A stretch of 64,000 nucleotides of DNA from an uncultured Fibrobacteria bacterium. Lineage in GTDB: Bacteria > Fibrobacterota > Fibrobacteria > UBA11236. Of this stretch, positions 1 to 14,392 are shown in pieces. The stretch's first letter is position 1. Each line of letters begins with the position of its first letter. The stretch spans positions 911,989 through 975,988 of the forward strand of contig OY970309.1 of assembly GCA_963716395.1 (NCBI GenBank), written 5' to 3'. The position numbers and the translations under genes are program-made. Below the pieces are notes generated by a model that saw only the letters and a list, made by a program, of their open reading frames with translations, had not been told where the DNA came from and did no database searches.

Positions 1-4
1 TCAA

Positions 5-295
5 TTAAACCATAATCAATTCCCCTAGATCGGGCGGTTTTTTGGCTCCATGATGCTCCACTTTTCGTTCCCAATTTGATCCAAGAAAGTAGAAGCGAAG
101 GCTATCCTGATCCTGGTTTAAAATCCCCAAAAGCCTGGTTTTCAACACTTCCCAACGAGCCGGATCGAGATTGCATTCAAATACCGAATTTTGAACTCGA
201 AGTCCGAAATCTTCACACGCTTCCGCGATTTTCCGAAGACGTTTCCGCCCTGCGGCCGTAATGGTGGAAACGTCATAGCTGACTAGCACCAGCAT
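5..295 (-). CDS. cas2: CRISPR-associated endoribonuclease Cas2
   Basis: 96-aa ORF with the typical Cas2 N-terminus ([10 protein letters not shown]...), immediately downstream of cas1 (1-nt gap); last gene of the I-C operon. Confidence 0.9.
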
Positions 296-296
296 T

Positions 297-1331
297 TTAT
301 CTCCAAAGAAAGGCTGGATAGAATTCGAGATCTCCGCGAATGTGCCTAGCTAATAGCCGGGCTTGGGTCAGGAAACAGAGCCCAACATCCAAATCCTCGT
401 CCAGGAAAGGATGTTTGATGGTCTCGCGTTTTCTTTTTTGAATGTCGGCAAGAACCGTCTTGCGTGTTTCCACAGTCATTTCAACCTCGGTTGAAGGTTG
501 CACGATGAACCCCTCGCGGTTGACTTGCTTGAGATTCACCAAACTCAACACCAATCGGTCTGCGAAAGGCGCCCGGAATTCTTCCATCAAGTCCAAAGCC
601 AGCGATGGCCTCCCCGGCCGCTCCACATGAAGGTATCCGACATAGGGGTCAAGCCCCACCGATTCCAAAGCGGAGCGCATATCCAGGGCAAGAATGGAAT
701 ACGCAAAGGAAAGCAAGGCGTTCACACGATCCGTCGGCGGCCTGCGACTTCGGCCGTTGAAGCGGAATTCAGATTCCGGCGGCAATAGCATCGCGTCGAA
801 TACCGAGAAGTAGGCTTCGGCGGCATCGCCTTCTATGCCGCGCAGCGACTCGACGGAATCGGTTTTCTTGGCCCCGGTAAGGCAATTCTCCATGCGGTTT
901 AACATGACTTCGATTTCCGCCGATCGGGTAGATTCCGGATGGTTGCGGAGAAAACGCAGCAAGGTGGCCCTTTGGTTCTGAATCTTGGCCGCCACGCAAC
1001 AGCGGGCTATCGACAACGAGCGCGCCGGATCGTCCGCGAGGCGATATTGTTCCCGTCGCAGTAAGACATTGCCATGTACCGGCCCCGTCAGTCGCGCCAG
1101 GAATTTTCCATTGCCATGCAAATAGCTGACGGTCACGCCTTCACGAGCGCAATGCTCGGACAGTTCCGGTGACACGCCGATGCCGAAACCGAAACAGACG
1201 ATTTCACCGATCGCGTGAAGCGGGAATTGCGCAACTTTTTCCCTATCCTTGCGTACCGTAACCGCCTCGCCATCCTTGTGGAGATAAGCCCCTTCCAAGG
1301 TCATGTACAGCGTATTGCGAACATGCTTCAT
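297..1331 (-). CDS. cas1: CRISPR-associated endonuclease Cas1 (type I-C)
   Basis: ORF 297..1457. The Cas1-like N-terminus [24 protein letters not shown] starts at residue 43 (coordinate ~1331), overlapping the cas4 stop. Length and conserved C-terminal acidic region fit Cas1. Confidence 0.9.
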
Positions 1332-1996
1332 CCTAGTAGCTCCTGGCGGTAAGCCTGAACCTTTGCGGGCGCCGCGCTTTTCGGCTGGCAAATTCCTATC
1401 AACGAACAGGAGCGGCAGCCTTTTTTCCAGATAGCGGGCGGCAACTGTCGCAAACACATCATGTGATCGAAGGCGGTGATGGTTTCCCGGGTGCGGATGC
1501 GTAAGGCCTCATCAAAAACCACTTCGTCTCTTCGGCGGATTCTTCCATAGAAAATCGATCCTTCCGGAATCTCAGCCCCGGTCATCTCCTCCAGGCACAG
1601 GGCTTGGGCGCAAAGTTGAATCCGATCGCAATCCAATTCCTTGGGTTCGCCGCGCTTGAATTCCACCGGACGAATTTTCCAATTTCCGCTTAACCCAAGG
1701 AATGATGCCGTATCCGGCGTATCGCCTATCTTTTCAACCTCCACCACGTCCAAACGTCCGTACAAACACAATTTCAAAGACTGAACACGCACCCCGGAAA
1801 ACTGGCGCAACCCCCGGCGGAATTCCCGATAGCCTTCATCCACCCGTTCATGCAAGGTCCGGCCTTCGGCAGTGCGCTGGTTTTCCTCCCAGACTTGCTC
1901 AAGGTGAATCAACCCGGCCTGCCGCGGGCAGAAGGCCATGTGCTGCAAAGCCGAGATCGGATGCAGATCTTCTTCACGGTGGGCCGTGGTGGTCAC
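1328..1996 (-). CDS. cas4: CRISPR-associated exonuclease Cas4 (RecB-like nuclease with C-terminal Cys cluster)
   Basis: 222 aa; N-terminal ISALQHMAFCPRQAGLIHLEQ motif and C-terminal CRSCSLIGIC Fe-S cysteines typical of Cas4. GTG start overlaps the stop of the upstream dinD-like ORF. Confidence 0.85.
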   Translation of the reverse strand: MTTTAHREEDLHPISALQHMAFCPRQAGLIHLEQVWEENQRTAEGRTLHERVDEGYREFRRGLRQFSGVRVQSLKLCLYGRLDVVEVEKIGDTPDTASFLGLSGNWKIRPVEFKRGEPKELDCDRIQLCAQALCLEEMTGAEIPEGSIFYGRIRRRDEVVFDEALRIRTRETITAFDHMMCLRQLPPAIWKKGCRSCSLIGICQPKSAAPAKVQAYRQELLG

Positions 1997-2832
1997 GGTT
2001 TCGGTTTTGCCAGCTTTCGGGTTTTTGATCCCGGCAAATAGTTCTGTCCAGAAACGACTTTCCGCCCCGTACGGCTTTCCAGAGCTTTGCGGGCCTTACC
2101 GGCTACGGAACCTCCTTCCCTGGCGGCTTTGCGGTTCGGCTCGAAACCCTGAACGTCTCCGGTGCGGGTGATCTCGGTGGTGGCCGCTTCACCAAGCATG
2201 CTGAAGATCAATTCCAAATCGTTCATATGGTCGCGAAGGTTTTCGCGCTTGAGCCCTTTGATTTGCTTGTATTCGGATGGCGTGACTCCGAAGGCCGCTT
2301 TGGAGATTTCGGCGGTCAGGATGGCGTAATCCTTCTCCTCTTGGATTCCCCGGTTTTTCCACTCTCCTGTCAGCTCTTCCCGAATGGCGATGGACCGCAT
2401 GCGCTTTTCGATCCAGTCGTCCGGATAGCCCTTGGCCTTGTACAAAGCCCGGGTGCGCTTGGAGGCTAATTCGGGGTCCTCGATTTCCTGAATGCGCTCA
2501 TATCCCACCTTGGCCAGCCATTTCTTGAAAGGCTCGGCCTTGGGCGAAGGAATGCTCTGGATGATGCGGAAAACGCCTTCGGTGTTGGCACAATTAAGGT
2601 TTTGAAGACCTCCCGGCGTTTGGACGGAAAGGGGGGTGGCAATTTGCCCCCACCCTTGGTTCAGTTCCGGGTCGCGTCGGCGCATATCCTTGACGTATCC
2701 CGCCGGTTTCACTGAGTCGGTCAAGGCCGAAACGACGTCAGCAATGACGAACCACCATTCGCCCTTATGCAGGGTTTTGCGGATTTCTTTGCCCCGGAAC
2801 AGGGCAATGTGGGTGGGGTCCTCCACGTTCAA
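1993..2832 (-). CDS. BRO-N domain / DinD-like (DNA-damage-inducible protein D family) protein embedded in the cas operon
   Basis: N-terminus ([19 protein letters not shown]) resembles BRO-N antirepressor-type DNA-binding domains. The C-terminal half ([33 protein letters not shown]) aligns by eye with E. coli DinD. Likely GTG start at ~2826, preceded by a GGAUGG Shine-Dalgarno. Confidence 0.7.
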
Positions 2833-3977
2833 GCCATCCGCAACAATTTCACGCCGTTTCCGGCATCGGCACTTGATCCGACCGCAGGTAGTGGTTTCCC
2901 GTCGAACGTGACCTCGTAGTCCTCGAATGCCCTGGCAGGCGGCAATTTGCCACCTTCGCCAGCTACGCCGATTTTCCGCTTGGCCACGACACGCTCGAAC
3001 AAGGCATGCGCCGGGGCATTGCCGAGAGCCGTGGCGTGTTCAAATACAAGCAAAGGACGCGTAGACATCAGTCCACGGGCCGCAGATCGGTCATGCTCGA
3101 AAGCGTTAACCAGTGAATCCCAAAAGAGATTCAAGTCCTCTTCGGAAAAGCCGGTTTGATTGGCGAGATGAGCGGAAATGAAACCGTGGGAGCGGTACAA
3201 TCCATATGGAACGGTGAATTTACGGCCCATGGTTCGGTTGTCTCCACCCTGTTTCTCGGCCTCGGCTTCGGTGGCCACGGCCATGCGGGTGATACTGTGT
3301 TCCAGGGCCACGATGGGATCCACCGAGCGGGCGAAGGTCATCTGGATGGGTCCGCGGACTTGACCACAATTAGGGGCCGATTTGAGAGACATAACAGCGC
3401 CAAAGGTCCGGATGTCGTAAAAATGAGAACACATCCAATCGCGCCCTTTACCTGTTTCTTCGGCGGTCGGTTTTCGCGCTTTCACGCCTTTTAAAGAATC
3501 TTCCAGAAATTTCTTGAGATCCTTTCCAGGTTTGGTTTCCTTTATCGCCTGCTTAATCGATTTGACATCGGCATCAGCGGCCACGACTAACCAAAGTTTC
3601 TCCTCGTCCTCGTCAAGGCTCAATCCCTCCGGCAAAATGAAATCTTCTATTTCGGTCTTCAGGTTGTCCGGAATGAGTTTTCTGCCTTCTTCTCCCAAAG
3701 CAATTCCGAGGTCGGTGAATGCGGCATTATGGGCTCTCCCCAAAACCGCTTTTTCCTTGACGTAAATGTCGTACCCACTTTTGGGTTTTTGTCCTTCCGT
3801 TTGCGTCAGTTGGACAAAATTGCGGATTTTTCTTTTGAGACATACATCGGTGACAAGCCCCGTGCCAGTTTCAGCGTCGATGCGCGGAAGATTGCCGGCG
3901 TCGGGATCGCCGTTTGGATTGCCGTCCTGAATGTCGAACAGAAAAATGAAGTCGTAGCGCTTGGTGATATTACTCAT
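2829..3977 (-). CDS. cas7: Cas7c (Csd2) Cascade backbone subunit
   Basis: 382 aa; N-terminus [34 protein letters not shown] is the Csd2/DevR family signature. Confidence 0.9.
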
Positions 3978-3999
3978 AATTTTCTCCTTGAGGTTTTAG

Positions 4000-5709
4000 T
4001 TACTCGGATATTTTGGGCTTGGTGAAAAAGGCCTGGCGTTGGTGGTAATAGCCGACGGCGAAGCGGGCTTGGTCTTCCATGGAAAGGTGGGCCGGCATGT
4101 CTGGAGACAAACCTCCGAAAATCTCCGTCAGCCGATTTTCGTGGACGGCTCGAAAGGCAGGGTTTTCCAATTTGGCCAAGTGGTGATTCTTCAACTTCAA
4201 CAATTGTGGAAAAACACTAATGGGACTGGAACTGGCGGCTCCGTAGAACCGATCGCGGATGGTGGTATTGATGCCGGGTTGCGCGTCTTCTTGGATTTTT
4301 TCCAGGGTGGCGAAAAGCCTTCCAAGACGGTAACCCGAATTAGTATTGGTGAGATCTAGCGACACGGTAATTTCCTCCTGAATGGGATTGTTCTGCTGCC
4401 GATGTTGGCGGTTGATGCAAGCTTTTAGAATGGCGGCTTGCGTACGCCGCACGTCCTGCGTGGCACGGATGCGCCGAATTGCCTGCTGCAAAAGAGTCGC
4501 AGGATAAGGGGTTCCCGTCAAAATGGAAAGCATGACGCTACCCGCCAGATTCGGCGGAACGTTCTCAGTTTTGTTCTGGACTGCGATATCCGAGAGCAGG
4601 AAAAACAGCGCGTAATTCCCCTTGTCGTTCTTGGGCTTGACGATTTCCAAATCCTGAAAATGCTGACGGATTCTGCCGGAAAATTCAGCCACGGTGCCGG
4701 CATGCCAGAAACGCACTGAGACACGGGCGGCATTGGGAGAAAGTCCTAGTACAAAAAAACGGGCTTCGCCATCGGGAATTCCGGTGCCAGTGAATGGGCT
4801 ACGGAGCAAGGTCTCCATCGCCTTAATGCCGCGATCCGGGTCATCCTTTGGTGGAGCATTCCAAAGAAAGGAAAAGACTTCCTCAAACGAAGTCTTCTTT
4901 TCTGACCAAAAAACTGTTGTTGCATCGCCAACTTGGACCTTGTTTTTTGAATCCCTTCCCAGGAGGAGGTTCAGAACCGTGGTGTAGGCAAAGGTTGCCG
5001 ATTCACTTACGGGAGCATTATAGTTTTGCTCCTTCCGGAAAGACCTGAATGCCGGGAGGTTGAACGAAATTAGTGCCGCACCCGAAGACTGAGCGTCTCG
5101 AACCCCTTTAATCGAAGGATGGATACGGGCAGCCGAAGATTTGCATCCTGATATAAGGCAGATTCCCGCACCTTTCGAACCGGGCCTACGGATATGGGTT
5201 GAAAGTGATTCACAAATAGAAGCATCTCTTGCACCATCGATCCTAAAAAGAACATTTAGATTGGAATCCAAGACCTCCTTCCATCTATCCTCATCCTTTT
5301 TGCTTTTCTCAATTTGAGCTACGGGGTTTGAAGCGAGAAACCGTAAAAGAATCTCGCGATCAGGGTTTTCGTCGATATCGGAAGACAATCGACGCAGAAA
5401 ATCAGCATGTCGCTCCGAAATATCTTGCCTACCACGCGGATTGGCACCAAGGGCATATTCAACGTTGCCCCACAACAGATTCGCTTTAACATTCACGCTT
5501 TTTTTTTCCGCCACCGGTACAAGGAAGGATTTAGCCCGTCTTTTCCGTCCTTCCCCTTCCCGCGTGTCCTCTAAAGACACAAATTGCCCATCACGATCAA
5601 TAACGACGACAAACGAAATATCCTGCCACTGAAATCCTTCCGGTGCAATCCCACTTTCCGGATCCGCTGCCTTGCGTTGGTAATATTCGTACAACGCCTG
5701 CAAAATCAT
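4000..5709 (-). CDS. cas8c: Cas8c (Csd1) large subunit
   Basis: ORF 4000..5733. The Csd1-like start MILQALYEYYQRK is at ~5709, overlapping the cas5 stop. Position between cas5 and cas7 is as in type I-C. Confidence 0.85.
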   Translation of the reverse strand: MILQALYEYYQRKAADPESGIAPEGFQWQDISFVVVIDRDGQFVSLEDTREGEGRKRRAKSFLVPVAEKKSVNVKANLLWGNVEYALGANPRGRQDISERHADFLRRLSSDIDENPDREILLRFLASNPVAQIEKSKKDEDRWKEVLDSNLNVLFRIDGARDASICESLSTHIRRPGSKGAGICLISGCKSSAARIHPSIKGVRDAQSSGAALISFNLPAFRSFRKEQNYNAPVSESATFAYTTVLNLLLGRDSKNKVQVGDATTVFWSEKKTSFEEVFSFLWNAPPKDDPDRGIKAMETLLRSPFTGTGIPDGEARFFVLGLSPNAARVSVRFWHAGTVAEFSGRIRQHFQDLEIVKPKNDKGNYALFFLLSDIAVQNKTENVPPNLAGSVMLSILTGTPYPATLLQQAIRRIRATQDVRRTQAAILKACINRQHRQQNNPIQEEITVSLDLTNTNSGYRLGRLFATLEKIQEDAQPGINTTIRDRFYGAASSSPISVFPQLLKLKNHHLAKLENPAFRAVHENRLTEIFGGLSPDMPAHLSMEDQARFAVGYYHQRQAFFTKPKISE

Positions 5710-6530
5710 TTCCGCACTTCCTCGCTGTCCCAAGGCGGTACTTCGATAATCCCTTGCTCGATTTTCGCCCGGAAAAACGCAGGCTGCGGATCGTTTTCAT
5801 TCTGGAAATCCAGATCGAAAAGCATGAAACCCAATTCCCGCGTTTCCGCAATCGGCGGCTTTTCCTTTTGCTCCGAAGCCAATTCGCTTTCGGGAATGAA
5901 ACGGAATGCGCAACTGAACTCACGACAGCCGAGATAGGGCTGGTTGAAGCATTGACCTTTCGCGGCTCGGCGCTCGAACATGGCGTGATACTTCCCGGGA
6001 TTCTCGTCTTTACCGGTTTTGGCCGTTTCGGCGCAATGTGCGGTGAATTCTTTCTCTTCCGGGTCAACCAATGATTCCGGAACCGGATTCAAAACCTTGG
6101 GCCGCATGGAAGGCGGAATGAATTCCATCTCAGCATGTAACCGATAGGCTACGTCGCGTAGGAATAGTCCAGCCCTTTGCTGGCGGGCATCCTCGATGAG
6201 AATTTCAGAACCTGCCCGATCGCTGGCCACGGCGCCCACTTCATTACGCCGCACCGAAATCCAACGAATGGGTTGCAACACTTCGATTTTGCGGACATGC
6301 CAACGTATGGCGGGCTTCCAAAATATGGCGGTGAAAATCGCCCGGGCCGACGAGGGCGTGATCACGTCGTAACTGACGCGTTCCACCTTCATTTCCGGGC
6401 GGGTGAAACAGGCGTAATCGCCTCTTACTTTCAAACAGAACGATTTTCGCGTATGGGTCAAGAAACCTCCTTGGGGAGCGGATTTCACGGGTACACCGTG
6501 CCCTCCCGGCGTTGTGCCACGCTGATGCAA
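5706..6530 (-). CDS. cas5: Cas5c (Cas5d) pre-crRNA-processing Cascade subunit
   Basis: Conserved ...KSFCLKVRGDYACFTRPEMKVERVSYDVITPSSARAIF motif. The ATG at 6530 gives an atypical Gly-rich 23-aa extension, so the true start is probably the in-frame TTG at ~6461 (LTHTRKSFCLKV...). Confidence 0.85.
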   Translation of the reverse strand: MHQRGTTPGGHGVPVKSAPQGGFLTHTRKSFCLKVRGDYACFTRPEMKVERVSYDVITPSSARAIFTAIFWKPAIRWHVRKIEVLQPIRWISVRRNEVGAVASDRAGSEILIEDARQQRAGLFLRDVAYRLHAEMEFIPPSMRPKVLNPVPESLVDPEEKEFTAHCAETAKTGKDENPGKYHAMFERRAAKGQCFNQPYLGCREFSCAFRFIPESELASEQKEKPPIAETRELGFMLFDLDFQNENDPQPAFFRAKIEQGIIEVPPWDSEEVRK

Positions 6531-6547
6531 AGGGTATTATTGAAAAC

Positions 6548-6799
6548 ATGACGACTCTTTCGGTGCAGGTTCCTGAGGACATCTTTTCGGCGTTGCGGCT
6601 TTCTCCCGAGGAAATCGCGCGGGAATTGCCTTTGGCCGCGGCCATATTGTGGTATTCCAAAGGCTTGATATCCCAGGAAAAAGCGGCACACATCGCGGGC
6701 CTGAGTCGCGCGATCTTCCTGAACGAACTGGCCAAGGCTCAAATCCCCGTTTTCCATGTGGATTTGGATGAAGTTCGCCGGGAAGCCCTGAGTGGTTGA
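6548..6799 (+). CDS. UPF0175-family putative antitoxin
   Basis: ~83-aa protein (MTTLSVQVPEDIFSALRLSPEEIARELPLAAAILWYSKGLISQEKAAHIAGLSRAIFLNELAKAQIPV) matching the UPF0175 pattern. It overlaps the downstream DUF3368 gene by 8 nt. Confidence 0.6.
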   Translation: MTTLSVQVPEDIFSALRLSPEEIARELPLAAAILWYSKGLISQEKAAHIAGLSRAIFLNELAKAQIPVFHVDLDEVRREALSG

Positions 6800-7283
6800 G
6801 TCTGTCGTCAACGCTTCTCCCGTAATCCATCTCGGGGAAGCGGGGTATCTTTTCGTATTACGTGATTTGTTCGGCACCATCCTTATTCCAAGGCCGGTCG
6901 TCGATGAAATCCTCGCGAAGCCCGAATCGAAGGACCGTATTTCAAATACTCCATGGATTCGGGTGCTATCGGTGGATCCGCCTGCAGCATCCTTGACCGC
7001 ATGGGATTTGGGACCGGGCGAAACTTCGGTGCTGACGTATGCCTTGGCCCATCCGGGAACCGAAGCCGTATTGGACGATTGGGCTGCCCGCCGTTGCGCC
7101 AAAAGTCTTGGAGTTCCGGTATGCGGAACCCTGGGTGTCATCCTGCGCGCCGCGCGCAAGGGGATTCTCTCCGACCCGGTTTCCGTACTCCACAAAGTGC
7201 GGAATGCCGGCATGTGGCTTTCACAGGATGTCTTCGAGGAGGTGCTCGGCTTGGCTCGGGAAATGTCGAAATTCAGCAAATGA
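6792..7283 (+). CDS. DUF3368 (PIN-like nuclease fold) putative toxin
   Basis: 163 aa; NASPVIHLGEAGYLFVLRDLFGTILIPRPVVDEI... is typical of DUF3368 partners of UPF0175. The 3' end overlaps the cas3 3' end convergently. Confidence 0.6.
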   Translation: MVESVVNASPVIHLGEAGYLFVLRDLFGTILIPRPVVDEILAKPESKDRISNTPWIRVLSVDPPAASLTAWDLGPGETSVLTYALAHPGTEAVLDDWAARRCAKSLGVPVCGTLGVILRAARKGILSDPVSVLHKVRNAGMWLSQDVFEEVLGLAREMSKFSK

Positions 7284-9567
7284 AATCCTCCGGACCATCC
7301 AAGCGCAAACCGAAGGTTTCATCATACAGATTATCCACGCATTGAGCCCATAGACCCATCGCGCCCTCGGGTCCTTTCAGTTCCGCAATACTTCCTTGGT
7401 CTCGGAGTTTTTGCCATACGCGCTCAGGGACGTTAACTAGGCACCGTTGCAGCCTACGCATGCGCTCGCGAGAAGGGCCGGCATAACGCAACTCCTCCAG
7501 GATTTTTCGGCTGGAGTACCGATCCGAATCAGATTGCCACTCATACCACACCACGACACTTCGGTATCCTTGTTCATCAATGAGCCTGTACCATTGCGCC
7601 GCTGAGCGAAATTGAAATCGGCATTCGCCTTCACCTGCATCTTCAAAACCGTAACTTTTGAAATCTTTGCGACCGAAATCATTTACTGCCCGGTAGAAGC
7701 ATTGGAAATATTTCCGGAACGCGTCGGGGGAAAGTAGGCCGGATCGATCCGGCCAAGTCCGTATCACCTCGGAACCGGCCTGTTCCATTTTGAGCAAAAG
7801 ACCGGATGGAGAGGGTTTCGGCGGATTGAAAATCACCACTTCGCCCAACCTCTCCTTCAGCTTTCCTTCCCGGTTGCATCGTCCGGCCGCCTGGGCGATA
7901 CTATCCAGCCCAGCCATGGCCCGGAATACCACGGGAAAATCAATGTCCACCCCCGCTTCCACGAGTTGCGTGCTGATCACACACAGTGGCCTGTCTTGGG
8001 ATAAATCCTCCTTGATGCGCCGAATCACTTTGGAGCGATGCTCCCCGCACATCAGGGCCGAAAGATGAACTGGTGTTTCCGCCGATACCTGCCTGACCGC
8101 TTCCCAAAGCTCGCGGCAATCCTGCCGGCGATTGACGATGCAAAGAACTTGCCGATGTCCCGAAAGCTCACCGGCCAAACTCGGCCAATCAATTTTTTCC
8201 GGCCCTTGAAACCGCAATTGGACCCGCTTCAGGGATACGGCCAGCTCGGCCGGGCTTGTGACGATTTCCCTGACTGAGTCGCAATCGAGCCCCTGGAACC
8301 GGGCTTTTTGCGAGCCGATTTCTCCGAGCAGGGCGGGCTGGGTGGCGGTACATAACACCACGGTACACCCGAAATGCTTGACCAATCCTTTGAGCACCGA
8401 CAAGGTAGGTGCCAAAAATTCGGACGGTAACATCTGGGCTTCGTCCAGGATAATGACGGAATCCACGATATTATGAAGTTTGCGGCACCGGCTGGTGCGC
8501 GAGGCGAAGAGCGACTCGAAAAACTGTACGTTGGTGGTGACCACAACCGGCGCATCCCAATTCTCGGCCGCGAGACGGCCCCCCACGGTTTCCCGATCCA
8601 AATCCACATTACTGTGATGCTCCAGGACGTTCTCCGACCCTAAGACCTCGGAAAAAATCTGGGCCGCTTGCTCGATGATGCTGGTAAAGGGTATAGCCAT
8701 AATGACACGGCGTTTGCCGTATCTCAGAGCATGTTCGAGCGCGAAGGCCAGGGAAGAAAGGGTTTTGCCGCCGCCGGTTGGAACGGTAAGGGAAAAGAAG
8801 CCGGGTTCGAGATCCGCCGCCTTGCGGCAATCCGCCAACACTTCCCGTCTGATTTTGTTGACCAGAAGTTCGAAATTCCCTTTGGCCTTCAATTCGGCAT
8901 CTCTTTCATCTGTTTTGGATCGGAAAAGGACGTGCAATTCCTTCAAGGTGGAAGTAGGACCGCGTTTCTCGGCCTTCTCCGGATCCATAAAGGCTTCGGT
9001 GTCCAGAAAATCCGCGTCCACCAGACTGGAGAAAAGCATGCGTATCCACAGATGAATTTGCTCAGGATCCTGAGGCGGCTTGGATGCCGGTAAAGCGGCT
9101 TCCAAAATTTCTTTGGGAATATCCGCCTTTCGGGTTTCTTCAAGATGGCGGGTTTCATTCAGACGTTCTTCTAATCCCCAGCCTTCCGCCTTGTCTTTGA
9201 ACCAATCGGGCAGTCCCGAATGATGGCCCGCAATCAGGTAGGCTAGAACTCTTCCTATGCCTTTTTGTTTTTGTACGGCGTGAATGGCTCCGGCAGTACT
9301 GTGATCCACCTTGCCGGGAACATTTTCCAGGTGGGCATCTATCCGATACCCTGTTGCCGAGCGGATATAACTCTGAAAATCCGCCTTATACTTTCCCAAG
9401 TCATGCCAAAGTCCGGCCAAATAGCCCCAGTCGTGGGAAGAGAAATTTTGTGCCGCCTCCCCGGAGCGCCTTCCGACCTCTTGCAAATGCCCTTCCAGGG
9501 TATGTTCAATCCATTTGTCGGTGGCAGAGTCTTTCCGCACATGCGCGATATAGCGTTGCATCGACAT
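7273..9567 (-). CDS. cas3: Cas3 HD nuclease / SF2 helicase
   Basis: 764 aa. N-terminal HD motifs (HTLEGHLQEV...HDLGKY...), a Walker A (TVPTGGGKT), DEAQ, and a helicase C-terminal domain. Confidence 0.9.
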   Translation of the reverse strand: MSMQRYIAHVRKDSATDKWIEHTLEGHLQEVGRRSGEAAQNFSSHDWGYLAGLWHDLGKYKADFQSYIRSATGYRIDAHLENVPGKVDHSTAGAIHAVQKQKGIGRVLAYLIAGHHSGLPDWFKDKAEGWGLEERLNETRHLEETRKADIPKEILEAALPASKPPQDPEQIHLWIRMLFSSLVDADFLDTEAFMDPEKAEKRGPTSTLKELHVLFRSKTDERDAELKAKGNFELLVNKIRREVLADCRKAADLEPGFFSLTVPTGGGKTLSSLAFALEHALRYGKRRVIMAIPFTSIIEQAAQIFSEVLGSENVLEHHSNVDLDRETVGGRLAAENWDAPVVVTTNVQFFESLFASRTSRCRKLHNIVDSVIILDEAQMLPSEFLAPTLSVLKGLVKHFGCTVVLCTATQPALLGEIGSQKARFQGLDCDSVREIVTSPAELAVSLKRVQLRFQGPEKIDWPSLAGELSGHRQVLCIVNRRQDCRELWEAVRQVSAETPVHLSALMCGEHRSKVIRRIKEDLSQDRPLCVISTQLVEAGVDIDFPVVFRAMAGLDSIAQAAGRCNREGKLKERLGEVVIFNPPKPSPSGLLLKMEQAGSEVIRTWPDRSGLLSPDAFRKYFQCFYRAVNDFGRKDFKSYGFEDAGEGECRFQFRSAAQWYRLIDEQGYRSVVVWYEWQSDSDRYSSRKILEELRYAGPSRERMRRLQRCLVNVPERVWQKLRDQGSIAELKGPEGAMGLWAQCVDNLYDETFGLRLDGPEDFIC

Positions 9568-9645
9568 CCTTTACTTCGTCCGCTGTCAAGAATAGTCGGG
9601 ACCGACGCGAGCAGCGCGCGCCGGTCGCTTCTGCGTCTAATTTTC

Positions 9646-9726
9646 GTCTCAGCGAATGAGACCGGCGTTACCTACTGCACAAATGAACCGTTGCATGGCT
9701 GCTTCCAGTTTCAGAAACTGAGACGG
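9646..9726. promoter_or_regulatory. Palindromic candidate operators in the cas3/WYL divergent intergenic region
   Basis: Perfect palindrome CAGTTTC-A-GAAACTG at 9706-9720; inverted repeat GTCTCA-N5-TGAGAC at 9646-9662; extra TGAGAC half-site at 9719-9724. Confidence 0.45.
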
Positions 9727-9734
9727 AATATTCC

Positions 9735-10685
9735 ATGAAATCCATTTCTCACTTGCATAAGATCCATCGGTTGCTTTCGGAATCCCAAAAATCCGGGATC
9801 ACCCTTCCCACCTTGCAACGTAAATCCGGACTTTCCCGGCCGACGGTGTACCGCGTCTTGAAGAAGTTGAAGGAATTGGGCGCCCCCTTAACTTCACCAC
9901 GCCGGGGGTTTTACGCGTTCGCCTCTGAAAGTGCCTTCGAACTCCCCGGCTTTGCCTGGCTTTCGGAGGGGGAACTCGGAACCTTGCTTGGCCTCATGGC
10001 CTGGCTTGGCCAGCCGGAATCCGAAGCCCTGGAAGAAATCATCGGCCCCTTCCGCAAACGCGTCGAGACCATGGCCTCCCGGCTGAAAATAGATGGGGAA
10101 AAGTTGCAGACCGCCATCGCTCTCTTGCCCATGCACGCCCGCGTCATTCGTCCCGGCATCCTGCGTCAGACTTGTGAAGGGCTTTTAAGCAACCGGAAAT
10201 TGCGCATCCGTTACGGCGATGAAGACGATTTCCTGGATCGCGAAGTTTCGCCTCAGAAACTTGTACGCTACCGCGATAACTGGTACCTGGATGCGTTTTG
10301 TCACGTGCGTCAGGCACTGCGAATTTTTTCTCTTTCCCGAATCCGGCGATTGGAATTGCTGGCGGAGCCGGCCGAATCGGTGCCCCGGGCGGAGCGTGAC
10401 GCTTTTTTCGCCACCTCCTACGGTATCTTCAGCGGTACGTCTCAACATACGGCCATCTTGCGGTTTACTGGTTACGCCGCCCAAGAGACAGAAGCTGAAA
10501 CCTGGCACCCTCTGGAGCAAAAATCCCGCGATCAAGACGCTCTGGTGCTTCGATTTCCCTATGGAGATTCCCGCGAATTGGTACGGGATATTTTGCGCTG
10601 GGGCCCAGAGGTCGAGGTGCTTGGTCCCGTGAAATTAAGGGATCAGGTGGCGGAAATGGCGCGGCAAACGGCCTCGCAATATTAA
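9735..10685 (+). CDS. HTH-WYL-WCX family transcriptional regulator (BrxR/CapW-like), divergent from cas3
   Basis: 316 aa. N-terminal HTH (LPTLQRKSGLSRPTVYRVLKKL), a central WYL motif (VRYRDNWYLDAFCHV), and a C-terminal extension. Confidence 0.8.
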   Translation: MKSISHLHKIHRLLSESQKSGITLPTLQRKSGLSRPTVYRVLKKLKELGAPLTSPRRGFYAFASESAFELPGFAWLSEGELGTLLGLMAWLGQPESEALEEIIGPFRKRVETMASRLKIDGEKLQTAIALLPMHARVIRPGILRQTCEGLLSNRKLRIRYGDEDDFLDREVSPQKLVRYRDNWYLDAFCHVRQALRIFSLSRIRRLELLAEPAESVPRAERDAFFATSYGIFSGTSQHTAILRFTGYAAQETEAETWHPLEQKSRDQDALVLRFPYGDSRELVRDILRWGPEVEVLGPVKLRDQVAEMARQTASQY

Positions 10686-10914
10686 GGTCCGGACAGCAGG
10701 AATTTTCCTGAAATGGCCGAGGCGATGTACCGAACATATCGAGGTGACCCTGTTCGAGTCCGGTTTTTCGAATCGCACCGCTTCCCCGAGCGACTTGTGG
10801 TGAGCGTGTCGAACCCAGTCGAGGGGTGGCGCGCTGACTCCGGACGAATTCCGCAGGCCAGGGAAGGAAAATTCTTGCCGGCCCCGAACTCGATTCCAAT
10901 TGAGCGGAGCTTCG

Positions 10915-11985
10915 CTAGAGTATTTCTACCGGCGATCGCGTCTTTAGCAACTCGATTAATTCCAGCACCCCTTCGCGTGTTAACCATCCCTTCGCATTGG
11001 AGCGCGTCGCCTGCGACAGGCGTTTGACGGCGGCAATTTCCTGGCGGAAAAGGTGTTCGTTGAAACGCGCCAGCGTGAAAAAACTGGAAACGCGGGGATC
11101 GCTTTTTTCCAAGATGGCGTCGGCTTCGGAACGCAAGGCGGCGACTTCGCGGCGCAGGCGCTTGGCATAGGCCTTGAGCGTTGCGATGGGCGTCACGGAG
11201 AGATAGGGGCCAATGGCATTAAGCGGATTGCGCGCCAAAATATCGAAGAGTCCGTGGAGGTTACGGGCTTGATAGGCCGCGCTAAGCTTCTGCATCCACG
11301 CGGTTTTTTCCGCGCGCAATGCCGGGTCGGTTTCCTTATCGGGATGCAAGGCGCGCGCGAGCAGCAAATACAGCCCGCGCATGTCTCCGAGCAGGGATTG
11401 CTCTTGTTCCTCCGCGCGTTGTTTCGCCTTGGTCTTTGCGCCGGTTCCGCGTTTTTGCTGTCGATAGCGACCGGGATGGTCCTCGGGTTCGGGGCCGGGG
11501 CCGGGTTCAAAAAATCCCATAAACTCATCGAAACTCGCGCCGAATTCTTCGGTGCCGGCCCGGATTTCTTCCCCTTCTTCGTCGCTTAGACATGGCAGCA
11601 CAAGAAAATCTTTGCGTAGATCCGAAAGATCCTGATCAAAGTTTTCCTCGAGTTCGAAGATCAACCATTCCACCGCATCGTGGATTTTGGCCGCTTGCCG
11701 GGGTTTCATCCAACCCGCTTTCAATTGGTTCAGCAAGGCGGTGAGGCAGGCCCGTTTCCACCGAACGACGTTTTCCAGCAAGGGGACGAATTCCGCGGCG
11801 AAACGCTCCTGGGCCTGCACTAAAAGCTTTTCATTGCGCGCGGCCTGTTCCCGGGCCTCGGCGACGCCGCGCATCAGCCGGGACAGTTCGCCAAGAACCT
11901 TGGCATGGCCCGCGGCAGGTGCCGAGTTATCCAATTCGAGGGTTGGCCCAATCGGCACCGGCGTTGAGTCTGACTTCGGATTCAT
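10915..11985 (-). CDS. J-domain (DnaJ-like) protein of unknown function
   Basis: 356 aa with an internal J-domain signature LYLLLARALHPDKETDPALRAEKTAWMQKLSAAYQ (HPD motif). The N-terminal half is coiled-coil/acidic with no recognisable domain. Confidence 0.6.
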   Translation of the reverse strand: MNPKSDSTPVPIGPTLELDNSAPAAGHAKVLGELSRLMRGVAEAREQAARNEKLLVQAQERFAAEFVPLLENVVRWKRACLTALLNQLKAGWMKPRQAAKIHDAVEWLIFELEENFDQDLSDLRKDFLVLPCLSDEEGEEIRAGTEEFGASFDEFMGFFEPGPGPEPEDHPGRYRQQKRGTGAKTKAKQRAEEQEQSLLGDMRGLYLLLARALHPDKETDPALRAEKTAWMQKLSAAYQARNLHGLFDILARNPLNAIGPYLSVTPIATLKAYAKRLRREVAALRSEADAILEKSDPRVSSFFTLARFNEHLFRQEIAAVKRLSQATRSNAKGWLTREGVLELIELLKTRSPVEIL

Positions 11986-12464
11986 TCCAGAAATAGACCA
12001 ATTTTCACATCAAACTTGCAGGACAGATTCCCCGCCTTCCACGCGATGCGTACGTAAATCAAACCCTGTTTTCCGACCATGGCCGTCCGCCCCGGCTTCC
12101 ACCTACCAATCCTAGGGCCTCAATGCCAGCACGACTCCCCCATTTTCCTCGCCCTCATTTCACTTTCCCCTGGCAGAATCGCCGCCCGATCCAGCCCAAG
12201 ACATAGCCCATCTTTTCTCCCGCAGGGTAGCTTACCGATGACCCAGTATTCGGACTAATCCGGATACTTCGTCCAATCCGTGTTTTCACCTTCGCCGCCC
12301 CATCAAGCCCTACAGCTTCGGTTTCGTGCGCTTCGGGTTTCACCCTCTTCGGCGGGCCGGTCGGTCCGCCGAAGACGGGATATCAGACCGGAGGGTGAAT
12401 GAAAAGAATCCACGGTGAATGGAATTACACAATTCCGTCGCGCCAAAACCGGCCGAAGCGGACC

Positions 12465-12956: not shown

Positions 12957-13048
12957 GCTTTCTCCTGGCTGCGGAATTCAATTTACATGTCCGCTCCGGA
13001 CCGGCCACGACATTGACAGCGTGATCCGGAGCATCGTATCTTCGCCCC

Positions 13049-14392
13049 ATGTCCGGTCTCATGCGTTCGGTGTCGGGTATCCGTGGCGTGGTCGGTCCGG
13101 AATTCAATCCCGTTGTAGTGGCGGAATACGTCAACGTCTTGGTGGGCCAGCTCGGCGCCAAAAAAGTGGTGGTGGGCCGCGATACCCGTCCCACTGGCGC
13201 CATGATCGAGGCCGCCGTGGCCGCGGCCTTGCAGGCTTCGGGCGCCCAAGCCATCCTGCTGGGCATGGCATCGACGCCCACGGTGGAAATGGCGGTGCTG
13301 CAGCAAGGCGCCGACGCTGGCATCATCATCACCGCGTCGCATAACCCCGCGGAATGGAATGCGCTCAAATTTCTGAACGCCGAGGGTATTTTTCTCGACG
13401 AAGAAGAGGTGCGCCGCCTCTTCGCGTCCGTGGACGCGCGTCAGTTTCATTGGCAAGGCCATACCGGCATCGGTTCGCTGCGATCCGAGGCGGGAGCCGA
13501 CGAGGGCCATTTGCGCGCCATTCTGGATTTGCCCTTAATCGATGTCGCTGCCATCCGCCGCCGCGCCTTCAAGGTCGCCTACGACGGGGTCAACGGCGCC
13601 GGCAGTTTGATCCTCCCGCGCTTGCTGCGCGAACTCGGGTGCACGGTCGAAGCCCTGCATGTGACGCCCGACGGCTGCTTTCCCCATAACCCCGAACCCA
13701 CGCCCGAAAACCTGGCCGATCTCGCGCGCCGCGTGCGCGAGCAAAACTGCGATCTGGGATTCGCCACCGATCCCGACGCCGACCGCTGCGCCTTGGTCGA
13801 CGAGCACGGCACGGCCATCGGCGAAGAATACACGCTGGCCCTGGCGGTCGACTTCATGCTGCGCCGCCGGAAGGGCCCGGTGACCATCAACCTTTCCACC
13901 AGCCGCATGAACGAAGATTTGGCCGCGCGCTACGGGGTGCCGCTGACGCGCACCAAGGTGGGCGAAATCAATGTCGCGAAAGCCATGCAGGCGAACGGCA
14001 GCGTGATCGGCGGCGAAGGCAACGGCGGCGTCATCCTGCCGGATTTGCATTACGGCCGCGACGGCATTCTGGCCGCAGCCTTGATCCTTCAGTCTTTGAC
14101 CGAACGCGGCGGCGCGCTTTCCCAACTGGTGGCGGAAATTCCCGCCTACCACATCGACAAGCGCAAATTCGCGGTGGCCGGCAAAGACCCGCAGCGCATT
14201 TACGCGCAACTGGAAAAGACCTTCTCCGATGCCGAAATCGATCGCCGCGACGGGTTGCGCTTCGCCTGGCCCAGGCGCTGGGTGCATGTACGCCCGTCGA
14301 ACACCGAACCCGTATTGCGCGTCCTCGCCGAAGCGCCTACGCCGCAGGCCGCAGCGGAACTATGCGCCGCCGTGGAACAGGAGTTGGGATGA
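13049..14392 (+). CDS. alpha-D-phosphohexomutase family protein (phosphoglucosamine mutase/phosphomannomutase-like)
   Basis: 447 aa; active-site loop TASHNPAEWNALKF and a GEGNGGV sugar-binding motif. Immediately upstream of glmS, so it probably functions as GlmM. Confidence 0.85.
   Translation: MSGLMRSVSGIRGVVGPEFNPVVVAEYVNVLVGQLGAKKVVVGRDTRPTGAMIEAAVAAALQASGAQAILLGMASTPTVEMAVLQQGADAGIIITASHNPAEWNALKFLNAEGIFLDEEEVRRLFASVDARQFHWQGHTGIGSLRSEAGADEGHLRAILDLPLIDVAAIRRRAFKVAYDGVNGAGSLILPRLLRELGCTVEALHVTPDGCFPHNPEPTPENLADLARRVREQNCDLGFATDPDADRCALVDEHGTAIGEEYTLALAVDFMLRRRKGPVTINLSTSRMNEDLAARYGVPLTRTKVGEINVAKAMQANGSVIGGEGNGGVILPDLHYGRDGILAAALILQSLTERGGALSQLVAEIPAYHIDKRKFAVAGKDPQRIYAQLEKTFSDAEIDRRDGLRFAWPRRWVHVRPSNTEPVLRVLAEAPTPQAAAELCAAVEQELG

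Follow-up and report, generated by a model that had tools for sequence, protein, structure and literature searches.

Does a toxin-antitoxin (TA) pair that lies inside a CRISPR-Cas operon work together with the CRISPR system, or is it a passenger? This question is raised by a stretch of 64,000 nucleotides (nt) from an uncultured Fibrobacteria bacterium (GenBank assembly GCA_963716395.1, contig OY970309.1, positions 911,989 to 975,988 of the forward strand), which we will call the window; coordinates count from its first nucleotide unless another locus is named. A type I-C cas locus, encoded on the minus strand, takes up the first 10.7 kb of the window, and a pair of small genes from the UPF0175 and DUF3368 families lies antisense within it, between cas5 (start codon TTG at 6461) and cas3 (stop codon at 7273-7275). 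On balance, we favor the view that the pair is a passenger, an autonomous TA or abortive-infection module that has its own promoter and no dedicated link to the Cas proteins. The features that bear most directly on this question are as follows.

6548-6799, plus strand: UPF0175 (COG2886), a predicted helix-turn-helix (HTH) antitoxin of 83 amino acids with an ATG start (PF03683, PDLC05075).
6792-7283 (stop codon 7281-7283), plus strand: DUF3368/COG2405, a PIN-like predicted toxin of 163 amino acids with a GTG start; it overlaps the antitoxin's stop codon (PF11848, PDLC05070).
6462-6547, no strand assigned: divergent intergenic region, 86 nt between the cas5 TTG and the antitoxin ATG.
6512-6540, plus strand: putative promoter of the cassette, TTGTGC (6512-6517), 17 nt, TATTAT (6535-6540), 7 nt, ATG; a layout common to relatives.

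The identity of the pair is secure because the Pfam, PADLOC, and fold results agree. A sequence-only reading of this DNA had proposed a UPF0175/DUF3368 (PIN-like) pair of the TA type at these positions, and profile searches bore this out: the antitoxin matches PF03683 with 81.6 bits (E = 3.3e-23; gathering cutoff, 27.9; profile positions 1 to 72 of 75), and the toxin matches PF11848 with 38.5 bits (E = 1.1e-9; gathering cutoff, 27.3). Comparison with TA and defense entries gave a consistent answer, namely PADLOC's PDC-S70 and the known predicted COG2886-COG2405 TA. In PADLOC-DB, the toxin matches PDC-S70 model PDLC05070 (E = 3e-46, positions 5 to 159 of 161) and the antitoxin matches PDC-S70 model PDLC05075 (E = 4.8e-7). 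The UPF0175/DUF3368 match is far beyond chance. The antitoxin's open reading frame (ORF) is called identically in the public record (P0121), and the two ORFs overlap by 8 nt (GTGGTTGA), which is also the arrangement in a related pair, L085 (GTGACTGA). Similarly, 71 of 80 metagenomic relatives of the toxin have a UPF0175 gene within 60 nt directly upstream. Neither gene has a second copy within the window. An AlphaFold model of the toxin, with a 26-sequence alignment as input, has a PIN fold and a predicted local distance difference test (pLDDT) score of 95.4. Its top Foldseek matches are all PIN domains (Utp24, SSO1118/2mdt, SMG6, AF0591, VapC4, and HARP), with probabilities of 1.0 and template modeling (TM) scores of about 0.5-0.6; one of them, 2mdt/SSO1118, is the COG2405 structure. 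A sequence search found no relative of the toxin in the PDB.

UPF0175 (COG2886) is a predicted HTH antitoxin that is paired almost exclusively with COG2405/DUF3368 PIN-like proteins (PMC2701414, PMC5499597), and COG2886-COG2405 is a predicted type II TA (Makarova 2009, PMC2701414; Matelska 2017, PMC5499597); an example is sll0658/ssl1255 from Synechocystis (PMC4963859). The window's pair has both Pfam families, the antitoxin first, overlapping ORFs, and the PIN fold, as expected for this TA. Unlike the catalogued pairs, it lies antisense within the cas operon of a type I-C system and is joined at its 3' end to sequence derived from cas3. PDC-S70 is one of PADLOC's 145 phage defense candidates: it is described as a PIN nuclease that occurs mostly in archaea and still awaits validation (PMC12988326), and was found by "guilt-by-embedding" (Payne et al., bioRxiv 10.1101/2024.01.29.577857; PMC12988326). 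The window's pair matches its models and is nested in another defense system, which is how PDC-S70 was defined, but here the host system is type I-C CRISPR-Cas, and this copy is bacterial rather than archaeal. The pair also resembles VapBC, in that a small predicted DNA-binding antitoxin lies upstream of a PIN-fold toxin in a compact bicistronic module. However, the toxin has no match to PF01850 at E ≤ 0.01, with a likeness to VapC-type PIN at the fold level only; the antitoxin has the UPF0175 HTH instead of a VapB domain (AbrB, ribbon-helix-helix [RHH], or Phd); and the first catalytic aspartate of PIN is replaced by asparagine.

How did the pair come to lie between cas3 and cas5? As the sequence-only reading had noted, it fits snugly into the gap in the antisense orientation: the antitoxin begins 86 nt from the TTG of cas5, and the toxin, whose stop codon is at 7281-7283, overlaps the 3' end of cas3 by 11 nt in a convergent arrangement. 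Its expectation that cas5 normally follows cas3 directly also held. In most of the roughly 76 related I-C loci that have both genes, the gap between them is under 100 nt; it is about 12-45 nt in the eight loci whose Cas3 proteins are closest, and none of these has such a pair. Every close I-C relative that we checked (Cas3 61-70% identical) has cas3 and then cas5 with no UPF0175/DUF3368 pair, and the pair is absent from all of 80 species-representative I-C loci (Cas5 53-71% identical). The closest Cas3 proteins (67-70% identical; P0124, P0125, P0128, and P0129) are encoded 12-25 nt from cas5, with the gene order (WYL)-cas3-cas5-cas8c-cas7-BroN-cas4-cas1. The synteny of the closest loci agrees with the earlier proposal of an insertion into the usual I-C gene arrangement.

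An alignment of the junction to five of the closest loci (L164-L168) shows that the old spacer between cas3 and cas5 was split around an insert of ~790 bp (roughly 6478-7265). The relatives' spacer reads TGA-TTTTGA-AAGGAG-N-TTG; the window has TGA-ATTTCGA, the insert, and then CCCAAGGAGGTTTC-TTG. By this alignment, about 6462-6477 is the ancestral Shine-Dalgarno spacer of cas5, and the remainder of 6462-6547 is the upstream end of the cassette. At the other end, homologs of the toxin terminate in ...AREFQ or ...AREIA, while the window's toxin terminates in ...AREM-SKFSK. The antisense of the old spacer and of the 3' end of cas3 supplies its last five codons (SKFSK, 7266-7280) and its stop codon (7281-7283); the native end of the toxin has been replaced. 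Because cas3 and cas5 are neighbors in the closest I-C loci and the spacer is split around the insert, the pair is a derived insertion into a ~20-nt spacer between the cas3 stop codon and the cas5 Shine-Dalgarno sequence.

Is it then an unrelated mobile insertion, which the sequence-only reading had named as an outcome that would undo its proposal? The closest I-C loci lack the pair, a related copy (L085) is not near cas genes, and the family is not cas-linked, which all fit this description. On the other hand, no meaningful direct or inverted repeats flank the insert, there is no integrase or transposase at the insertion site, and a second I-C locus (L084) has a related pair in the same convergent position. 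The GC content of the insert also does not depart from that of the cas genes, the window contains no tRNA, and the viral contigs of IMG/VR yielded no relatives of the pair.

The cassette seems to bring its own promoter. The layout TTGnGn, 17-18 nt, TAnnnT, 6-7 nt, ATG, with no Shine-Dalgarno sequence, is shared by five members of the closest subclade: upstream of the antitoxin, it is seen in L082, L083, and L085, as in the window, and L084 shows the -10 part. Scanning 6462-6547 for the sigma-70 consensus gave no match above the scanner's threshold: the scanner missed 6512-6540 because the -35 element matches at only 3 of 6 positions. The antitoxin's mRNA is probably leaderless because no Shine-Dalgarno sequence precedes the ATG. 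We propose that a self-contained promoter of the sigma-70 type (TTGTGC-17-TATTAT, 7 nt before the ATG) drives a leaderless, translationally coupled, bicistronic mRNA. As expected from the family, the UPF0175 antitoxin would bind and neutralize the PIN-like protein and would probably repress the cassette's promoter.

Does the insert cut cas5 and the genes beyond it off from the cas3 promoter? The true start of cas5 is the TTG at 6461, because AAGGAGG (6466-6473) lies 4 nt upstream, because homologs of cas5 align from residue 1 of this start, and because several of them share the same TTG; the ORF reaches 6530, but the extension upstream of the TTG is not conserved. Both the Shine-Dalgarno sequence and the TTG start are intact beside the insert, and we found no terminator-like site on the minus (cas) strand within 6200-7600. 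Expression of cas5 to cas2 is therefore still explained most simply by read-through from the cas3 promoter, which is plausible. On the plus strand as well, there is no terminator-like site downstream of the toxin into cas3. The sequence-only reading had the module splitting cas3 from the Cascade genes. This is right in the physical sense, but the operon is probably not interrupted transcriptionally: transcripts from the WYL-controlled cas3 promoter would continue over the 0.8-kb antisense insert.

What do related cassettes tell us? The cassette seems to be autonomous because the promoter-like layout is kept in relatives from unrelated contexts, because the nearest relatives, P0002 and P0003, and the pair in L085 are not adjacent to cas genes, and because a pair of related copies is under strong purifying selection. 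In particular, P0002 and P0003 (52% identical) have unrelated neighbor genes and no cas genes; the context of L085 is non-cas; and about 20 long metagenomic loci with the UPF0175/DUF3368 family contain no I-C cas genes or arrays. Taken as a whole, the family shows no linkage to cas genes. The pairs in L085 and L084 have antitoxins that are 93% identical and toxins that are 84% identical, and the ratio of nonsynonymous to synonymous divergence (dN/dS) is 0.015 between the antitoxins and 0.07 between the toxins. Their synonymous sites are near saturation (proportion of synonymous differences, pS, 0.66-0.74), so the contexts of these two cassettes reflect old rather than recent movement, and we rejected recent mobility. 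L085's own surroundings look like a repeat-rich TA cluster: the cassette is flanked (1-1100 and 1950-4097 of that locus) by several repeat copies that translate to similar peptide strings (...STRGRNSTPTHWGH...), and there is a second TA-like pair at 2674-3314. Under the explanation that we favor, the window's pair would have no dedicated mechanistic tie to Cas; it would be a small defense or TA module nesting at a permissive junction of a larger operon, and any stabilization of the cas locus would be a by-product of addiction.

Several observations weigh against this explanation. First, 24 of 25 aligned relatives have asparagine (N7) where the first canonical PIN aspartate would stand, and one can therefore count on neither nuclease activity nor toxicity. 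Second, in the literature that we searched, we found no report of toxicity, neutralization, or anti-phage activity for the UPF0175/DUF3368 family. Third, the promoter and the read-through are deduced from sequence. Fourth, the pair in L084 (31-1313 of the 1.3-kb contig Ga0265340_10102017) is convergent with the 3' end of a I-C cas3, with a 28-nt gap, and this coincidence at cas3 is unlikely for a purely random passenger.

The asparagine suggests one alternative, which is that the pair is an inert remnant: the PIN-like protein could be catalytically dead, or the cassette unexpressed, leaving a neutral scar. The loss of the toxin's native C-terminal codons and stop codon to the insertion junction, and the lack of a consensus promoter above the scanner's threshold, point in the same direction. 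However, both ORFs remain unbroken and keep the 8-nt overlap that is typical of the family; N7 is conserved across the family and is no sign of local decay; and the toxin alignment shows no variation at E39, D95, or D96. Also, the promoter-like layout is conserved, and relatives are under strong purifying selection. We consider a remnant to be very unlikely. The fourth PIN acidic position is non-acidic (T113), and the acidic residues of COG2405 have been given as 2-5, "+/-" (PMC5499597); judging from N7 and the invariant E39, D95, and D96, catalytic competence of the toxin is plausible but not assured.

Does the L084 pair indicate an old association with cas3? It is the best metagenomic relative of the window's pair (toxin 55% identical, antitoxin 65% identical). 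However, its Cas3 belongs to a different subclade from the window's Cas3, and cas5 comes right after cas3 at the locus of its nearest neighbor there (P0134, with 84% identity over the C-terminus), so two separate insertions of related cassettes, alike in junction and orientation, are more parsimonious than one old event with many losses. We did not accept ancestral association with codivergence as the simplest reading: P0124 is the sister of the window's Cas3 and P0134 that of L084's, neither of which has the TA pair, and the junctions differ (an 11-nt overlap in the window and a 28-nt gap in L084). The L084 contig is too short to reach the other side of its pair, where cas5 might lie.

Other modules are found at the same places in other I-C operons. 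At the cas3-cas5 junction, L059 (9277-9977) and L078 (2659-3395) hold bona fide Phd/YefM-PIN pairs, which are co-directional with the cas genes; L023 (9255-10001) has a Fic protein; and L022 (5900-6358) has an IS200-type Y1 transposase. The cas7-cas4 junction is often occupied by toxin-type modules. There, HicA with HicB-like partners is confirmed by Pfam in L054 (13261-13721) and L074 (7264-7506), and ORFs similar to HicA/HicB-like genes are present in L066 (5202-5444) and L071 (11532-11990). The same junction holds ParE with an RHH or "Unstab_antitox" partner in L051 (11807-12352) and L053 (7395-8002), Fic in L034 (8760-10118), and ORF6N in L028 (13400-13687). In the window's own clade, the cas7-cas4 slot is occupied by a Bro-N protein (PDC-S13). 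There is a hint, then, that I-C operons have two permissive or preferred slots, cas3-cas5 and cas7-cas4. Defense islands are known to collect passenger modules (10.1101/270033), and the nesting that we propose for a self-promoted passenger is general, because Phd-PIN, Fic, HicA, and ParE modules lie at I-C junctions of other genomes.

The sequence-only reading had suggested that the pair might give addiction-like stabilization of the cas locus or antisense control of cas3 and cas5, which was speculation. For antisense control, the relevant alternative is transcriptional coupling, in which convergent transcription or antisense RNA would give the inverted cassette and the cas operon control over each other. 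In one version, induction of the cas3 promoter would silence the TA genes, the labile antitoxin would decay, and the freed toxin would cause dormancy while CRISPR acts; alternatively, a TA complex bound at 6476-6547 could modulate the expression of cas5. The genes do face each other, they overlap by 11 nt, no terminator separates them on either strand, the L084 pair has the same antisense orientation, and coupling of immunity to dormancy has been hypothesized (PMC3506569). But the Phd-PIN pairs at this junction (L059 and L078) run with the cas genes, and antisense geometry is thus no general rule; two instances (n = 2) would share an orientation by chance in 50% of cases; and no operator-like palindrome stands out in 6462-6547 beyond short repeats at chance level. 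Coupling seems quite unlikely to us.

Stabilization of the locus corresponds to a selected guard: postsegregational killing would penalize cells that delete or lose the costly region of cas3 and Cascade, and the pair would be retained for this reason. Such a guard would be the protein-based counterpart of CreTA, a CRISPR-regulated RNA toxin-antitoxin that guards type I cas genes (PMC9458426, PMC10097628). The pair's position in mid-operon means that most deletions that remove cas3 or the Cascade genes would hit the pair as well; different toxin modules recur at I-C junctions; L084 provides a second instance at cas3; and stabilization by TA systems has been proposed for islands and for the CRISPR plasmid pSYSA (PMC4963859). 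However, a classical TA protects against its own loss only and not against point inactivation of cas genes, and all of the closest I-C relatives do without the pair. There is also no CRISPR-repeat-like element of the CreTA type. We judge a selected guard to be unlikely.

Might the pair be a form of CreTA itself? Both are addiction-type modules inside or next to a type I cas operon, and both could in principle penalize loss of the locus. But CreTA is RNA-based and needs a degenerate CRISPR repeat and Cascade, whereas both members of the window's pair are proteins with no repeat-like element. The I-C repeats of relatives end in GGATTGAAAC, and a search of the window for a CRISPR-repeat-like element gave one near match, which lies inside cas3 and is at chance level. 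Just upstream of the antitoxin's ATG, ATTGAAAAC (6539-6547) resembles the I-C repeat end ATTGAAAC; it overlaps the -10 element and the spacer of the putative TA promoter and is not conserved in L082-L085. A CreTA-like RNA was rejected, given that ATTGAAAAC is not conserved in related cassettes, that no repeat-like match is above chance, and that there is no match to Rfam. The pair is neither a PF01850 VapBC nor CreTA.

A further alternative, which we regard as improbable, is that PIN-type and other toxin modules are recurrently captured at cas3-cas5 and cas7-cas4 because they are functionally wired to CRISPR. The pairs in the window and in L084 would then be switched on by changes in cas-operon transcription or by inhibition of Cas3/Cascade, and would serve as a protein-based backup or guard. 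There is a precedent for real functional synergy in HicAB integrated with CRISPR-Cas13a (PMC13448076), where a type II TA pair likewise lies within a CRISPR-cas locus. However, the TA family and the CRISPR type are different, and a link from the window's pair to Cas components is not indicated. If the wiring did exist, then the pair would be a type I analog of HicAB-Cas13a or CreTA and not a passive passenger.

The host locus is otherwise a regular one: all seven I-C genes (cas3, cas5c, cas8c, cas7, cas4, cas1, and cas2) were identified in one block by Pfam, NCBIfam, or homology. A CRISPR array is expected beyond position 1 of the window, outside the sequence that we saw. The remaining features of the locus are as follows.

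5-295, minus strand: cas2.
297-1457, minus strand: cas1.
1328-1996, minus strand: cas4.
1993-2832, minus strand: Bro-N gene (279 amino acids), between cas7 and cas4 (PF02498; PADLOC PDC-S13 model PDLC04920, E = 1e-111).
2829-3977, minus strand: cas7.
4000-5733, minus strand: cas8c.
5706-6461, minus strand: cas5c, the first gene of the Cascade/adaptation block (TIGR01876, E = 2.9e-72; PF09704).
7273-9567 (stop codon 7273-7275), minus strand: cas3 (HD plus helicase), intact (TIGR01587, TIGR01596, PF22590).
9735-10685, plus strand: WYL/WCX HTH regulator, divergent from cas3 (PF13280, PF25583, PF08279; PADLOC WYL "CAS associated_signaling" models).

The window's Cas3 retains the conserved C-terminal end, (E/D)FIC. 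It lacks four residues just before this motif that are present in all close relatives and in L084 (window 7276-7300 compared with L164-L168); this indel adjoins the insertion junction. The Bro-N gene occupies the same slot between cas7 and cas4 in the closest I-C loci (L004 and L164-L169), with 78-80% identity, for instance at L004 13414-14232, L164 6555-7388, L165 7186-8013, L166 10700-11533, and L168 9031-9864. Its conservation across these loci equals that of the core Cas proteins, and it has the look of a stable accessory gene in this clade of I-C loci, not of a one-off insert. The WYL/WCX regulator (9735-10685) likely controls the cas3 promoter. In the closest relatives (L003, L164-L166, and L171), the WYL gene is just upstream of cas3 on the same strand, while the window's copy is divergent, and the relatives' WYL proteins are only 37-41% identical to it. 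Given these differences in orientation and sequence, the regulatory end of the locus has been rearranged or replaced. The cas locus (1-12000) has a GC content of 46-60%, as compared to 63-66% in the adjoining housekeeping region (13000-14000), which includes a glmM-like gene at 13049-14392. This contrast is consistent with horizontal acquisition of the whole cas locus.

Overall, this is a clear but fairly ordinary case of defense genes that are nested in other defense systems, and the family is known and is already listed as a defense candidate owing to such embedding. As an example of a TA or defense cassette nested in a CRISPR operon, it is a clean one: both boundaries of the insertion can be read, and the 3' end of the toxin has been rebuilt from antisense cas3 sequence. 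The guilt-by-embedding of PDC-S70 is extended from BREX, DISARM, and restriction-modification systems to type I-C CRISPR-Cas. The additions are modest: an instance in a I-C operon; a second, probably independent instance at the same junction (L084); and a hint of two preferred slots. If the recurrence at cas3 reflects coupling and not chance, the pair would offer a tractable test of immunity-dormancy coupling in a type I system.

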